Numbered from the stretch's first letter, positions 13,460 through 17,950 are shown. The stretch is DNA of 60,239 nucleotides from a virus (IMGVR_UViG_3300008255_001543:1-60239); one strand, 5' to 3'. Made by a program: numbers and translations. Notes: generated by a model not told the origin, from the letters alone.

Positions 13460-14512
13460 TTGATGAGTATTAGAGCTTTACAGGATTATGTATTTTATTC
13501 GCATTACGCTAAGCATCTCCCGGCCGAAAAACGCCGCGAAACCTGGAAGGAAGCTGTAAATCGTGTATTTGATATGCACCGTACCCAGTACAGCACGTTT
13601 CTCGCTGCGTCACCTGAATTAGCCAAGCTATTTGATATCGCTGAGAAGGCTTTGCAGAGTAAGCAAATTCTAGGATCTCAGCGTGCGATGCAGTTTGGAG
13701 GTGCTCCTATTCTAAAGAAGCACGAACGCATATACAACTGCAGTAGTACACACATTGATCGTCCCCGAGTTTTTCAGGAGTGTTTGTATCTTTTGCTGTG
13801 CGGTGTAGGCGTGGGATTCTCAACACAGTTCTGCCACGTCAATAAGCTTCCAAAGATTGCGAAGCGGACTAAAACTCCAATAAAGTATGTCATTGAAGAT
13901 AGTGTTGAAGGCTGGGCTGATGCTGTTGGCGTTTTGATGTCATCGTATTTTGTCCAAGATCAGCCATTTCCGCAATATGCTGGTCACCATATTAATTTTG
14001 ATTTCTCGGCAATTCGTCCTCGAGGAGCTCTAATTAGTTGGGGTGGTATAGCTCCTGGTCCAGAGGGCCTAGAAACCGCCTTGCGCAATATAGACGGGTT
14101 ACTTTATTCCCGATTCGAGAAGGAAGCTTCTGGAACCGTCCAGATGCCTCCAATCGACTGTTATGATATTATCATGCACCTCAGTGATTCAGTTCTATCG
14201 GGCGGTATCCGACGCTGTTTGCCCGAAACATACAATATCCTTATGTCTGATGGATCATATAAGAAGATTTCGGAAGTAAAGATTGGTGATAAAATTAGAT
14301 ATAACGAAAAGGTATATCCAATCACTTCTGTGTTTGATAATGGTGTGCAATCACTTCTAAAGATAAAAACCGCTAATGGCTATCACATTTCAACGCCCAA
14401 TCATAAATGGTTGGTCTATGACCACACTGAAGAGATTGTGAAATGGCTAAGCGCTAAAGATATTAGGCTCGATTCAGAGAATTATTCATTTGTAGAAGAC
14501 GCTAGCGAGTAA
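13460..14512 (+). CDS. nrdJ: Class II ribonucleotide reductase fragment 1 + split intein N-half (IntN1 from 14216)
   Basis: RRETW, YNCS, GVGVGFS, DSVEGW, RPRG, GGIRR, then CLPET...TPNHKW intein blocks A/B. Confidence 0.9.
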   Translation: MMSIRALQDYVFYSHYAKHLPAEKRRETWKEAVNRVFDMHRTQYSTFLAASPELAKLFDIAEKALQSKQILGSQRAMQFGGAPILKKHERIYNCSSTHIDRPRVFQECLYLLLCGVGVGFSTQFCHVNKLPKIAKRTKTPIKYVIEDSVEGWADAVGVLMSSYFVQDQPFPQYAGHHINFDFSAIRPRGALISWGGIAPGPEGLETALRNIDGLLYSRFEKEASGTVQMPPIDCYDIIMHLSDSVLSGGIRRCLPETYNILMSDGSYKKISEVKIGDKIRYNEKVYPITSVFDNGVQSLLKIKTANGYHISTPNHKWLVYDHTEEIVKWLSAKDIRLDSENYSFVEDASE

Positions 14513-14552
14513 AGTGAGGCCGAATCAATAGACAGTATAAGGGAATTTCTAA

Positions 14553-15233
14553 ATGATACCGCAAAAAATTAAATTACATAGAATAACTGGTGTAGAAGAA
14601 GTTGCATCCGCTCAAACATACGATATAGCAGTAAATAAGGTCCATGCCTTTTCAGCAAAATCTGAGTCTGGCCTAATATCTGTTTCGCACAATTCAGCAT
14701 GTATCAATCTGTTTTCTGTAGATGACGTTGAGATGTCCAATGCTAAAGTGGGTGACTGGTCATTGACTAATCCACAGCGTGCCCGTAGTAACAATTCTGC
14801 ACTTCTGATCAAAGATGAAACTACACATGAGCAGTTCTCTGCACTGTTCAAGCATACCCGTGAGTTTGGGGAACCAGGCTTCGTCTGGGCTCATAACAAG
14901 AATATATGCTTTAATCCGTGCGTAACTGCAGATACGCTTGTATCTGCTAGGATTAACGGTTTGGAATCGACAGTGAGAATCGACGAGCTTATATGCGCCT
15001 TTAATGGGGGTGAAGCGATTGAGGTGCTATCTGTAGATACAGATTCGATGATTCGTGAATGGTCTTTAGTTACTAATGGTGCCAAGACTCGCGTGGCCGC
15101 TACTGTAATTTCGATCGAAACTGAAGATGGCCATATTCTAAAATGCACACCGGATCATTTAATTTGGACAAACAATAGAGGTTATGTTAAAGCTGCAGAT
15201 CTAAACAGTGATGACGATGTTGAAATAGCATAG
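14553..15233 (+). CDS. nrdJ: RNR fragment 2: IntC1 (to 14693) + 75-aa extein + IntN2 (from 14919)
   Basis: TYDI..SHN|SAC; SNNS, GEPGF, FNP|CVTAD...CTPDH. Confidence 0.9.
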   Translation: MIPQKIKLHRITGVEEVASAQTYDIAVNKVHAFSAKSESGLISVSHNSACINLFSVDDVEMSNAKVGDWSLTNPQRARSNNSALLIKDETTHEQFSALFKHTREFGEPGFVWAHNKNICFNPCVTADTLVSARINGLESTVRIDELICAFNGGEAIEVLSVDTDSMIREWSLVTNGAKTRVAATVISIETEDGHILKCTPDHLIWTNNRGYVKAADLNSDDDVEIA

Positions 15234-15235
15234 CC

Positions 15236-15243
15236 TATAAATA
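15236..15243 (+). promoter_or_regulatory. T4-type late promoter TATAAATA driving the endonuclease
   Basis: exact consensus 5 nt before ATG; other copies at 1443, 4257, 6060, 7022, 18453, 19833, 20701. Confidence 0.8.
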
Positions 15244-16031: not shown

Positions 16032-16833
16032 TATTGAAGAGAATGAAGATGTATATGATATTACTGTTGAGAAGAATCACAACTTCTTTGCTAATGGTAT
16101 CTTAGTCCACAATTGCGTTGAAATTGGGATGTGGCCAATGTGCCAGAATGATGATGGTTCATTAAGCTCAGGGATTCAGTTCTGTAATCTAACAGAGATT
16201 AATGGCAAGAAAGCGCATGATGAAGAGAGCTTCATTGAAGCCTGTAAAGCTGCTGCCATTCTTGGTACTATCCAAGCTGGGTATACCACATTTCCATATC
16301 TCGGTGAGGTTACCGAAAAGATAACTCGGCGCGAAGCTCTTCTGGGTGTGTCGATCACAGGCATGATGGATAACCCTGAGGTTCTGTTCTCGGAACAGAT
16401 TCAGCGCCGCGGCGCCAGAGAGGTTAAGAAGTGGAATAAGATCACAGCCCAATTGCTTAACATTAATCCTGCAGCTCGCACAACATGTATCAAACCCAGC
16501 GGGAGCGCGTGTGTAGGAATTAACACACCAATCAAAACATCGAAGGGCATTATGACGATGGGTGAGTTATTTTCCCACTATGATTTCTTTACCGATGAGC
16601 AGGGTGCTGGTATCCCGATCGTTGATGAATCTATACAGGTATATGATGAGAATAACGAGCTCAAGAATATTGAGGCGTTATTCTGCAACGGCTTTCAGCA
16701 AACGTATACTATCGAGTTTGAAGATGGCACAACGTATGAGTTTACAGCTGATCATAAGTTGAAGACGATGGATGGGTGGAAGCTTCTGTCAGACCTTACT
16801 GAAGATGATGATGTAATTGATTTTGGTGTGTGA
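16009..16833 (+). CDS. nrdJ: RNR fragment 3: IntC2 (to 16113) + 132-aa extein + IntN3 (from 16510)
   Basis: VYDITV..FFANGILVHN|CVEI; CNLTEIN; TCIKPSGSA|CVG...FTADH. Confidence 0.9.
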   Translation: MAKIKRISIEENEDVYDITVEKNHNFFANGILVHNCVEIGMWPMCQNDDGSLSSGIQFCNLTEINGKKAHDEESFIEACKAAAILGTIQAGYTTFPYLGEVTEKITRREALLGVSITGMMDNPEVLFSEQIQRRGAREVKKWNKITAQLLNINPAARTTCIKPSGSACVGINTPIKTSKGIMTMGELFSHYDFFTDEQGAGIPIVDESIQVYDENNELKNIEALFCNGFQQTYTIEFEDGTTYEFTADHKLKTMDGWKLLSDLTEDDDVIDFGV

Positions 16834-16859
16834 AGCCTTCCGAAATTGTAAATACTAAT

Positions 16860-16949
16860 ATGAAGACAGAACCATACGTTTATATCGTCAAAAATAAGAC
16901 AACTGGCCTATTGTATATTGGCTCTAAATATGCCAAAGGTAGATTATGA
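16860..16949 (+). pseudogene. 29-aa GIY-YIG endonuclease stub between IntN3 and IntC3
   Basis: MKTEPYVYIVKNKTTGLLYIGSKYAKGRL*; TGTAAATA upstream; stop overlaps the next ATG (ATGA). Confidence 0.75.
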
Positions 16950-17950
16950 AAATAAAGAAGATCACGTTTAATAGCCAACCACAACTAACCGTCGATATAC
17001 AAGTCCAAGATACATCATCGTATCAATTGAGCAACGGTGTGGTCTCTCATAACTCGTGCGTTCTGGGCACATCATCGGGTATACATCCTCATCATTCATC
17101 TCGTTACTTCCGTCGTTCTCAGGCAAATAAGAGCGAGTTTGCATTGCAGCACTTCAAGTCAGTGAATCCTATTGCTGTTGAAGAGAGTGTTTGGAGTGCG
17201 AATAAAACCGATGACGTCATTACATTCCTGTGCGAGGTTCCGTATGGCGCGAAGGTTAAGAATAAGATGTCAGCTATTGATCTTTTGCATTATGTTAAAC
17301 TCACCCAAAACAACTGGGTTGAAGAAGGCACCAATGAAGATCTATGTGTAGTGCCATACGTTCGTAATAACGTTAGTAATACCATCACTGTGAAAGATGA
17401 TGAATGGGATGAGGTGGAGAAGTTCATTTATCGTAATCGTCGAAGCTTTGCGGGTATTTCCTTACTTCCATTCTCTGGAGATAAGGACTACGAACAGGCG
17501 CCATTCTGTGCAATCTATGATCCAACCGAATTGATCAAGATGTATGGAGACGCTGCAATCTTTGCGTCAGGTTTGATTGTTGATGGCCTAGCAGCTTTCA
17601 AGAGTTTATATTTGGCCTGCGATACGTTGCTTGGCAGGGGTGTGAAGCTTGAAGTACCCGATACAATTATGGAATTCAGCCAAACATATCGCGAAGCATT
17701 TATGACAGAGCTAGCACTTCGTAAAGATTGGATCCGTAGAGGTATCCAGTTTGCTGATCGATATTTCAAAGGCGATATTCGTCATATGACGTATTGTCTT
17801 AAGGATGTTTCGAACTGGAAGAAATGGTGTGATCTTTCTCGGGAATATAAAGAAGTGGATTGGGTCAATCTTACAGAAGACAGTTATCACGTTCAAGCAG
17901 ATTCTATTGCTGCTTCGGGCTGCTCGGGTGGCAAGTGTGATATCGTTTAG
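16946..17950 (+). CDS. nrdJ: RNR fragment 4: IntC3 (36 aa) + C-terminal extein
   Basis: SNGVVSHN|SCVLGTSSGIHP; NVSNTI; YEQAP; C-terminal CSGGKC redox pair. Confidence 0.9.
   Translation: MKIKKITFNSQPQLTVDIQVQDTSSYQLSNGVVSHNSCVLGTSSGIHPHHSSRYFRRSQANKSEFALQHFKSVNPIAVEESVWSANKTDDVITFLCEVPYGAKVKNKMSAIDLLHYVKLTQNNWVEEGTNEDLCVVPYVRNNVSNTITVKDDEWDEVEKFIYRNRRSFAGISLLPFSGDKDYEQAPFCAIYDPTELIKMYGDAAIFASGLIVDGLAAFKSLYLACDTLLGRGVKLEVPDTIMEFSQTYREAFMTELALRKDWIRRGIQFADRYFKGDIRHMTYCLKDVSNWKKWCDLSREYKEVDWVNLTEDSYHVQADSIAASGCSGGKCDIV

Follow-up and report, generated by a model that had tools for sequence, protein, structure and literature searches.

The closest described relatives of the locus considered here are the fractured genes of Dassa, London, Stoddard, Schueler-Furman and Pietrokovski (2009; PMC2677866). 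As set out in the main text of that paper, each of these loci is broken in two: the first part of the host protein (the N-extein) is followed by the N-terminal half of a split intein (IntN), then by a free-standing homing endonuclease gene and, on the same strand, by the C-terminal intein half (IntC) fused to the C-extein. Their hosts are phage genes of DNA metabolism, including the ribonucleotide reductase (RNR) genes NrdJ and NrdA, with insertion at the loop which carries the radical cysteine; the NP|C-loop site (the bar marks the junction) is called the most frequent RNR intein insertion point. The same text mentions acidic IntN and basic IntC halves for NrdJ-1, NrdA-2 and IMPDH-1, a gp41-7 locus which lacks an endonuclease gene, and a single DnaE locus which contains a portion of a further intein. 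We describe here an nrdJ locus on the plus strand of a virus from IMG/VR (IMGVR_UViG_3300008255_001543:1-60239, positions 13460–17950; the whole stretch of 60,239 bases, rated 33% complete, is referred to as the window), which is an extreme natural form of the fractured-gene layout known since 2009.

The locus resembles the 2009 cases in its same-strand order of extein, intein halves and endonuclease gene, in its phage DNA-metabolism host, in insertion at the radical-Cys loop, in its acidic IntN and basic IntC halves and, at the first insertion site, in the absence of an endonuclease gene as at gp41-7. An endonuclease gene lies between IntN and IntC on the same strand at site 2; there is a putative stub of one at site 3 and none at site 1. 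It differs from the loci of PMC2677866, as given in its main text, in that one gene lies in four pieces with three unrelated split inteins and two products of the form IntC-extein-IntN, and neither site 1 (GGIRR|S) nor site 3 (KPSGSA|S) is among the sites mentioned there. Split RNR genes are also listed in the phage RNR survey PMC3653736, none of them, in the accessible part of that survey, with several split inteins. Our literature searches, in which PMC2677866 was represented by its main text, found no natural gene whose pieces are joined by two or more split inteins, the multi-intein systems there being engineered. In the accessible parts of PMC7090010, PMC7210297 and PMC12707363, engineered tandem trans-splicing is, as here, a one-pot ordered ligation by orthogonal split inteins with IntC-cargo-IntN middle pieces; the present arrangement differs in being natural, in lying within active-site loops and in deriving from selfish elements.

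The region contains five open reading frames (ORFs A, B, H, C and D) plus one of 29 codons (Table 1). We propose that three independent mobile inteins invaded three conserved active-site loops of a phage nrdJ of the ribonucleoside triphosphate reductase (RTPR) kind, that each intein is now split between two genes, and that the pieces are most likely trans-spliced into one enzyme, a reading which we regard as quite probable. An earlier note, made from the nucleotide sequence alone, had suggested a class II reductase whose four gene pieces carry three different split inteins, and every computational test that was run agrees. Translation of the ORFs returned exactly the extein lengths given in that note (252+75+132+298, together 757 amino acids [aa], or 756 with the ATG start at 13463 used in gene call P0001) and its three junctions, GGIRR|S, NP|C and KPSGSA|S, and the ORF map likewise bears out its claim that the two middle genes, B and C, each have the order IntC-extein-IntN. 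Its count of four genes is correct for the reductase pieces; the locus comes to five genes when ORF H within intein 2 is counted, and contains in addition a putative endonuclease stub in intein 3, neither of which had been listed.

Table 1. Features of the nrdJ locus and of other regions of the window (positions counted from the first base of the window; nt, nucleotides)
Feature	Positions	Strand	Length	Description
ORF A	13460–14512	+	350 aa	extein 1 (252 aa, end GGIRR) + IntN1 (98 aa, start CLPE)
extein 1	13460–14215	+	252 aa	252 aa from TTG 13460, 251 aa from ATG 13463
IntN1 + stop	14216–14512	+	98 aa	Cys1, block B TPNH
spacer in split intein 1	14513–14552		40 nt	without endonuclease gene
ORF B	14553–15233	+	226 aa	IntC1 (47 aa, end SHN) + extein 2 (75 aa, SAC...FNP) + IntN2 (104 aa, start CVTAD)
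IntC1	14553–14693	+	47 aa	end SHN, +1 Ser
extein 2	14694–14918	+	75 aa	SAC...FNP
IntN2 + stop	14919–15233	+	104 aa	Cys1, block B TPDH
ORF H	15249–16031	+	260 aa	free-standing endonuclease gene between IntN2 and IntC2; begins 15 nt after ORF B
ORF C	16009–16833	+	274 aa	GTG start; IntC2 (35 aa, end VHN) + extein 3 (132 aa, CVEI...KPSGSA) + IntN3 (107 aa, start CVGIN)
IntC2	16009–16113	+	35 aa	GTG start, end VHN, +1 Cys = Cys of NPCxE loop
extein 3	16114–16509	+	132 aa	CVEIGMW...KPSGSA
IntN3 + stop	16510–16833	+	107 aa	Cys1, block B TADH
29-codon ORF	16860–16949	+	29 codons	in the 112-nt gap between C and D; stop overlaps ATG of ORF D
ORF D	16946–17950	+	334 aa	IntC3 (36 aa, end SHN) + extein 4 (298 aa, start SCVLG)
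IntC3	16946–17053	+	36 aa	end SHN, +1 Ser
extein 4 + stop	17054–17950	+	298 aa	SCVLGTSSG...CSGGKCDIV
SegE-type ORF	18466–18888	+		intact GIY-YIG type; Pfam PF19835, E 3.7e-37
PHROG 459 protein and CobS-like ATPase	25736–29895		827 aa (PHROG 459 protein)	region covering both, on the plus strand
CobS-like AAA ATPase	28639–29895	+		PHROG 249 'porphyrin biosynthesis', E 9e-101; Pfam AAA_5
polB region	33583–36726	+		family B DNA polymerase
polB, first ORF	33583–35109	+		exonuclease domain and start of polymerase domain
Cys-rich ORF	35144–35362		72 aa	between the polB ORFs
polB group I intron	35491–35697	+		Rfam RF00028, 96.2 bits, E 6e-24
polB, second ORF	36082–36726	+		
uvsX region	51741–53669	+		UvsX/RecA-like recombinase with two further split inteins
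uvsX ORFs	51741–52625, 52652–53179, 53133–53669	+		three ORFs; middle product IntC, 11-residue extein SMFPKDIVSGG, IntN

Placed on the intact 751-aa RTPR of Rhizobium phage RHph_I1_18 by BLASTP, exteins 1–4 occupy residues 31–269, 270–344, 345–471 and 472–751, a tiling which is exactly contiguous, with zero residues lost or doubled at any junction. The full-length tiling was repeated in a MAFFT alignment (A3) with ten intact relatives, nine of them beyond RHph_I1_18. The closest intact relative in this alignment, locus L007, is 68–81% identical to the four pieces and has at the three junctions the sequences GGIRRSACINLF, NPCVEIGMWP and KPSGSASCILGTSSG, respectively. A family profile built from the window exteins and these ten relatives has a sole match in the PDB, the RTPR of L. 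leichmannii (1L1L; E 1.6e-37, residues 30–690). The earlier note had proposed aligning the spliced product to NrdJ; piece by piece the exteins are contiguous, and the profile matches 1L1L alone. Extein 1 by itself also finds 1L1L (E 5.9e-9) and carries the Pfam domain RNR-II_ins_dom (32.7 bits, cut-off 27). In phmmer searches of the PDB exteins 2 and 3 alone gave nothing meaningful, and extein 4 reached RTPR with just E 0.23.

The NPCxE loop (FNP|CVEIGMW) spans the junction of B and C, and the Cys of FCNLTEI belongs to extein 3; alignment A3 shows both to be conserved. We take these two cysteines to be C408 and C419 of RTPR, the HMM (hidden Markov model) alignment being shifted in this loop. 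Extein 4 ends in CSGGKCDIV, and the CxGGxC pattern is present in 10/10 intact relatives of the alignment. Taken together, the NPCxE loop, the FCNLTEI Cys, the CSGGKC pair and the profile match to RTPR identify the gene as nrdJ, predicted to encode a monomeric class II reductase of the L. leichmannii RTPR kind. From family membership we infer that the enzyme depends upon cobalamin.

All three IntN begin with Cys1 and have a TxxH motif in block B, and every IntC closes with His-Asn, the next residue being Ser, Cys and Ser, respectively (SHN|S, VHN|C, SHN|S). Intein 2 has the clearest database relatives: IntN2 matches the NrdJ-1 intein in the PDB (8UBS/9OMB; E 1e-11), and IntC2 matches the Spl DnaX mini-intein (E 7e-6) and NrdJ-1 (E 2.7e-5), among several inteins in the range 7e-6 to 3e-5. 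Pfam Intein_splicing is found in IntN2 (E 1.2e-8) and in ORF C (E 8e-15). In the nrdJ loci L003, L005 and L006 the corresponding IntN is 53% identical, and IntC2 is 83% identical to the IntC of L003–L006. IntN3 matches the Ssp DnaB mini-inteins in the PDB (E 3e-6) and is 34–40% identical to the IntN of L057, L058, L060 and L052; IntC3 is 54–63% identical to the C-halves or C-terminal part of the inteins of these four loci, of which that of L052 is contiguous and of endonuclease-bearing size.

Intein 1 is the one with the weakest sequence support of the three. IntN1 is 42% identical to the IntN of P0002 and of L050 at the same GGxRR|SA site (P0002, E 8e-17), and IntC1 is 53% identical to the L050 IntC at this site. 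The predicted complex of IntN1 with IntC1 scored 0.90, and the best of three controls reached 0.00; the partner predicted local distance difference test (pLDDT) value was 91, and three runs shared at least 99% of contacts. The mark used is reached by 58/80 solved complexes and 2/110 mismatched pairs, and is only a rough guide for this pair, which was run with its own two-row alignments; the predicted pairing may reflect likeness to solved split inteins. Identical positions between the inteins number 28/85, 20/69 and 29/93 for the IntN pairs and 16/35, 13/33 and 11/34 for the IntC pairs, and judged by these counts the three inteins are mutually divergent.

The likeness of IntN2 and IntC2 to NrdJ-1 had been pointed out in the earlier note, and as homology it stands: the two share the host enzyme class and the active-site loop, and both halves can be aligned. 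Intein 2 is not, on the other hand, an allele of NrdJ-1, because insertion point and +1 residue differ. It lies at NP|C with Cys+1, one residue upstream of NrdJ-1, which sits one residue C-terminal of the NP|C site (NPC|S), according to the main text of PMC2677866, and has an obligate Ser+1, according to the accessible text of a preprint (bioRxiv 10.64898/2026.03.03.709324). A similar displacement is seen at site 3. The intein 3 homologues of L057, L058, L060 and L052 lie at KPxG|[TS]xS and that of the window two residues downstream, at KPSGSA|S; relative to these homologues, the aligned window sequence is longer by two residues ahead of Cys1 and shorter by two behind His-Asn. The window position (KPSGxA|) recurs in P0029 and P0038, whose junction reads KPSGxA|C, and the KPxG| position in P0037, P0077, P0157 and P0164. 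The pair of sites used by intein 3, and intein 2 set beside NrdJ-1, suggest that an insertion point can move to an adjacent nucleophile.

In the assembly which we propose, four precursors would be translated apart, E1-IntN1, IntC1-E2-IntN2, IntC2-E3-IntN3 and IntC3-E4 (E, extein). Each acidic IntN tail would pair with its own basic IntC strand, and three protein trans-splicing reactions would excise the inteins and join the exteins into one reductase of 756 or 757 residues. At site 2 the +1 residue is the Cys of the NPCxE loop, as the earlier note had it, and because this residue is the nucleophile the catalytic loop would become a single chain only through splicing. An engineered IntC-cargo-IntN product cyclises its cargo when the two halves match, so inteins 2 and 3 would have to be orthogonal. 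We infer that all three pairs splice, that they are mutually orthogonal, that the product is active and that it is the sole reductase of the phage.

The ORF boundaries do not result from faulty assembly. Eighteen sequencing runs contain the stretch or part of it, none of them listed as an RNA run, and the Logan contigs of four (X1, X2, X4 and X5) were compared. X1, possibly the source run, contains the whole stretch in one contig; the other three, X2 (labelled hot springs, 2025), X4 and X5 (both labelled aquifer, 2017, with separate study codes, possibly of one campaign), represent three study codes, and their contigs show 0 differences from the window wherever they cover it. The stop of A and start of B are bridged by X2 record 3 and X4 record 13, the stop of B and start of H by X5 record 22, the overlap of H and C (23 nt) by X2 record 5, the stop of C by X5 record 25, the start of D by X4 record 17, and the stop of D by X2 record 10 and X5 record 26; among the pieces listed, positions 16866–16934 are covered by X1 alone. 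Depth in X2, X4 and X5 is low (2–7), and the comparison is one of contigs rather than reads. The idea that the stops are assembly or sequencing artefacts in a real gene with three contiguous inteins, or none, could draw on that low depth and on the origin of the record in a metagenome assembly; we consider it exceedingly improbable, because three runs other than X1 give contigs which match the window without a difference at most ORF boundaries. Point errors, moreover, would not give every IntC a separate start codon preceded by a non-coding spacer or an ORF for an endonuclease, the same split layout occurs at each site in unrelated contigs, and pieces A and B were also called as genes independently (P0001 and P0005). 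The doubt raised in the earlier note as to whether the stops are real is answered, at the level of contigs, by this comparison.

Two further explanations accept the stops. In one, covalent splicing fails to occur at one site at least, the pieces nevertheless form an active enzyme, and the intein halves serve as dimerisation handles, much as the NrdA of Aeromonas phage Aeh1, split by a mobile endonuclease gene, is reassembled by protein interaction (PMC3045599, in its accessible part). The Ser which replaces the block-F His in IntC3, the tight binding predicted for the halves of pair 1, and the fact that splicing is here a prediction from sequence would fit such an enzyme; yet the six halves keep Cys1, TxxH, the terminal HN and the +1 nucleophile, the radical-loop Cys would remain on IntC2 in a loop which needs to reach the substrate, and three HINT domains of 140 residues would occupy three active-site loops. 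NrdJ-1, the relative of intein 2, moreover splices ultrafast according to the accessible text of bioRxiv 10.64898/2026.03.03.709324, and we think this explanation unlikely. We give equally little credence to a decaying remnant, that is, a dispensable reductase broken by selfish elements in a phage using host deoxynucleoside triphosphate synthesis or another reductase encoded outside the sampled part of its genome, with at least one junction no longer splicing. Decay or loss of two of three endonuclease genes, the many other selfish elements in the window and the 33% completeness of the record are what one might expect of a remnant, but the homing cycle is expected to lead to loss of the endonuclease once an element is fixed, and splicing is unaffected by that loss. 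The four exteins are full length with their catalytic motifs kept and no frameshifts or internal stops, the splicing residues of the inteins are intact, identical sequence was recovered from runs differing in study, year and habitat label, and nrdJ is the only reductase detected in the near-complete genomes of relatives.

Several points weigh against assembly of one enzyme by three trans-splicing reactions. Neither IntC3 nor IntN1 has a sequence match in the PDB, and the Pfam matches of IntN1 are all below threshold. In block F, IntC1 (YDIAV...VHAF) and IntC2 (YDITV...NHNF) have both Asp and His; IntC3 keeps the Asp and has Ser (TSSY) where three homologues have His (THSY/THTY), the fourth, the contiguous intein of L052, having Asn. 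Replacement of this His could slow Asn cyclisation; the residue is not universal among inteins. Pro at –1, as at site 2, is unfavourable for some inteins, but this is the site singled out in PMC2677866 as the most frequent one in RNR genes. The tails of IntN2 and IntN3 are similarly acidic and all IntC open with a similar basic K-I-K strand, so that cross-pairing of inteins 2 and 3, which would skip or cyclise extein 3, is conceivable. The incompleteness of the record also means that a second reductase may lie elsewhere in the genome. Searched with PF02867 and PF13597, the window record gave nothing, which says little: the record is fragmentary, and at E 0.01 PF02867 does not reach even nrdJ, whose sequence is too divergent. 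The records of five relatives (two 100% and one 92% complete) are more informative: in four of the five the only PF02867-like signal is at nrdJ, in the fifth there is none, and NrdD is absent from all five records searched. Judging from these relatives, since its own 60-kb record is too partial, the phage probably lacks another reductase.

The endonuclease genes would place the three elements at three stages of the homing cycle: intact in intein 2, a stub in intein 3 and lost from intein 1. ORF H matches the phage nuclease families PHROG 9019 (E 6e-8) and PHROG 945 (E 1.6e-7). Residues P185, D186, E201 and K203 are invariant in 11 homologues, all of which lie between IntN2-like and IntC2-like halves, and form a PD-(D/E)xK signature, by which ORF H is assigned as a PD-(D/E)xK endonuclease. 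Its AlphaFold model (pLDDT 79.8) gave 0 Foldseek matches in the PDB at E ≤ 0.001; PD-(D/E)xK nucleases make up most of the weaker rows, I-Bth0305I (E 0.16) among them, and because of this weakness the fold is named from the PHROG matches and the invariant motif only. The 29-codon ORF in intein 3 matches PHROG 447 (E 0.0019) and PHROG 314 (E 0.009), the families to which the intact SegE-type ORF downstream of the locus also belongs, and might be the N-terminal stub of a lost GIY-YIG (SegE-like) endonuclease gene, a weak assignment because the ORF is so short. The gap of intein 1 has no endonuclease gene here, and L050 has an endonuclease ORF of 112 aa there. The SegE-type ORF itself is situated between nrdJ and an RNase H-like exonuclease gene and has a syntenic copy in L050.

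The inteins have a lower GC content (0.386) than the exteins (0.449). At the Rfam gathering threshold no intron was found in the nrdJ region (positions 12000–38000 were searched, the sole one being in the polB gene), and the gaps are therefore not group I introns. A scan of positions 12400–18600 for sigma-70 promoters and terminators gave 11 promoter-like sites against 16.0 expected and one terminator-like site against 4.3, and is uninformative on operon structure. Searched as DNA against GenBank phages, the whole region gave a 43-nt match only, indicating that there is no close cultured relative.

The history of the three sites can be read to some extent from related loci. Parts of the window were mapped onto 136 loci; 82 sources (81 loci and the window) had extein matches, which after removal of 24 duplicates left 58, a sample biased to intein carriers since several queries contained intein sequence. 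Reading occupancy at site 1, site 2 and site 3 or its neighbour, we found insertions at no site in 31/58 (L007 and others). Site 2 alone is broken in 10/58, among them the L003/L005/L006 group, and contains an in-frame insert, as the only insertion, in four more. Single cases are L050, with site 1 alone broken; L052, with an in-frame intein at the neighbour of site 3 only; and L057, with a contiguous mini-intein at site 2 and a split at the neighbour of site 3. Both site 2 and the neighbour of site 3 are broken in two sources (L058, which equals L059, and L060). L039 and L044 have at site 1 short in-frame inserts which are probably loops, five sources are incomplete, and the window is the only one of the 58 in which all three sites are broken. 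The closest relatives are L003, L005 and L006, with exteins 69–83% identical and, in each, a homologue of ORF H (60%).

A three-gene layout is apparent from the ORF lists of L058, with two endonuclease genes, and of L060, with one (on a 354-kb contig). Middle pieces of the form IntC-extein-IntN also occur among metagenome proteins of further lineages: P0006 and P0007 span sites 1 and 2; P0004, P0029, P0037 and P0077 span site 2 and site 3 or its neighbour; and P0010 joins site 2 to a site upstream in extein 1 (before CGVG). Two-split versions are recurrent in metagenomes, and the three-split version was seen in the window alone. The earlier note had placed the locus beyond the usual single-split cases, and this holds for its three splits; it goes less far than was thought, given the two-split versions in related phages and metagenome proteins. 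The two-split versions have in common with the window homologous inteins, IntC-extein-IntN products and endonuclease genes in the gaps; they differ in having two splits where context is visible, against three in the window. As far as our literature searches show, the two-split loci and middle pieces are unpublished. Scans of viral contigs with ORF B and P0006 found no B-like locus.

The first 125 residues of P0007 (IntC1, extein 2, IntN2) are 98% identical to L123, in which extein 2 runs directly into extein 3. With site 2 filled in one and empty in the other (L136 was also compared), this is the presence/absence polymorphism expected of homing elements, and the relatives as a set show such polymorphism for each of the three inteins.

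Several observations on the related loci may be recorded here. The P0010-type site lies just before the Cys of the LLCG/CGVGFS motif, and insertions of 0.9 kb occur nearby in L024 (~3360–4234) and L040 (~4395–5314). In Pseudaeromonas phage KLEP7 (L001, OM654377.1, 176–2610) the RTPR is annotated as two coding sequences with a gap of 176 nt exactly at the NPC loop, in which neither an intein nor, at the gathering threshold, an Rfam intron was found; at that threshold Rfam introns are lacking in L001, L024, L037 and L055. The gene 5' of nrdJ in L057 (3896–5609), L058 (3344–4531) and L060 (3958–5464) is by translation a candidate gp41/DnaB-type helicase. It carries an intein as well, contiguous in L058 but in L057 and L060 split and accompanied by a large endonuclease gene. 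In five loci, L108–L112, three IntC2-like segments lie within about 1 kb (for example L108, 5960–6973), which hints at another multiply interrupted gene.

The phage is unusually rich in selfish elements. With the two in the UvsX/RecA-like recombinase gene, the gaps of which hold no endonuclease ORF, the split inteins of the window number five, and the family B DNA polymerase gene lies in two ORFs between which are a group I intron and a small Cys-rich ORF (Table 1). A CobS-like AAA ATPase is encoded after a PHROG 459 protein; we might speculate that it is tied to cobalamin supply for a B12-type reductase.

The wider proposition is that the only RNR of this phage exists only after three mutually orthogonal trans-splicings, a natural one-pot ligation of four fragments, that two more split inteins rebuild UvsX in the same cell, and that homologous inteins have slid one or two residues along active-site loops (NP|C versus NPC|S; KPxG|T versus KPSGxA|S). 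The arguments for and against this full set of claims seem to us evenly balanced. If it is true, split-intein cassettes can re-target neighbouring nucleophiles.

The locus is an extension of a known kind, and double-split relatives are common in metagenomes. It would be a natural counterpart of multi-fragment ligation by orthogonal split inteins, which in the searchable literature appears as engineered only. The inteins are candidate engineering tools, a Cys+1 relative of the widely used NrdJ-1 and members of two little-characterised families, presumably co-adapted. Together with its relatives the locus displays the whole intein life cycle at hotspots of one gene, from empty site through contiguous intein and split intein with endonuclease gene to split intein after decay of that gene, and twice the insertion points of homologous inteins differ by one or two residues. 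Should the enzyme indeed need three different split inteins, selection can maintain such sets, and a single infected cell would, counting the two of uvsX, have five split inteins in action.

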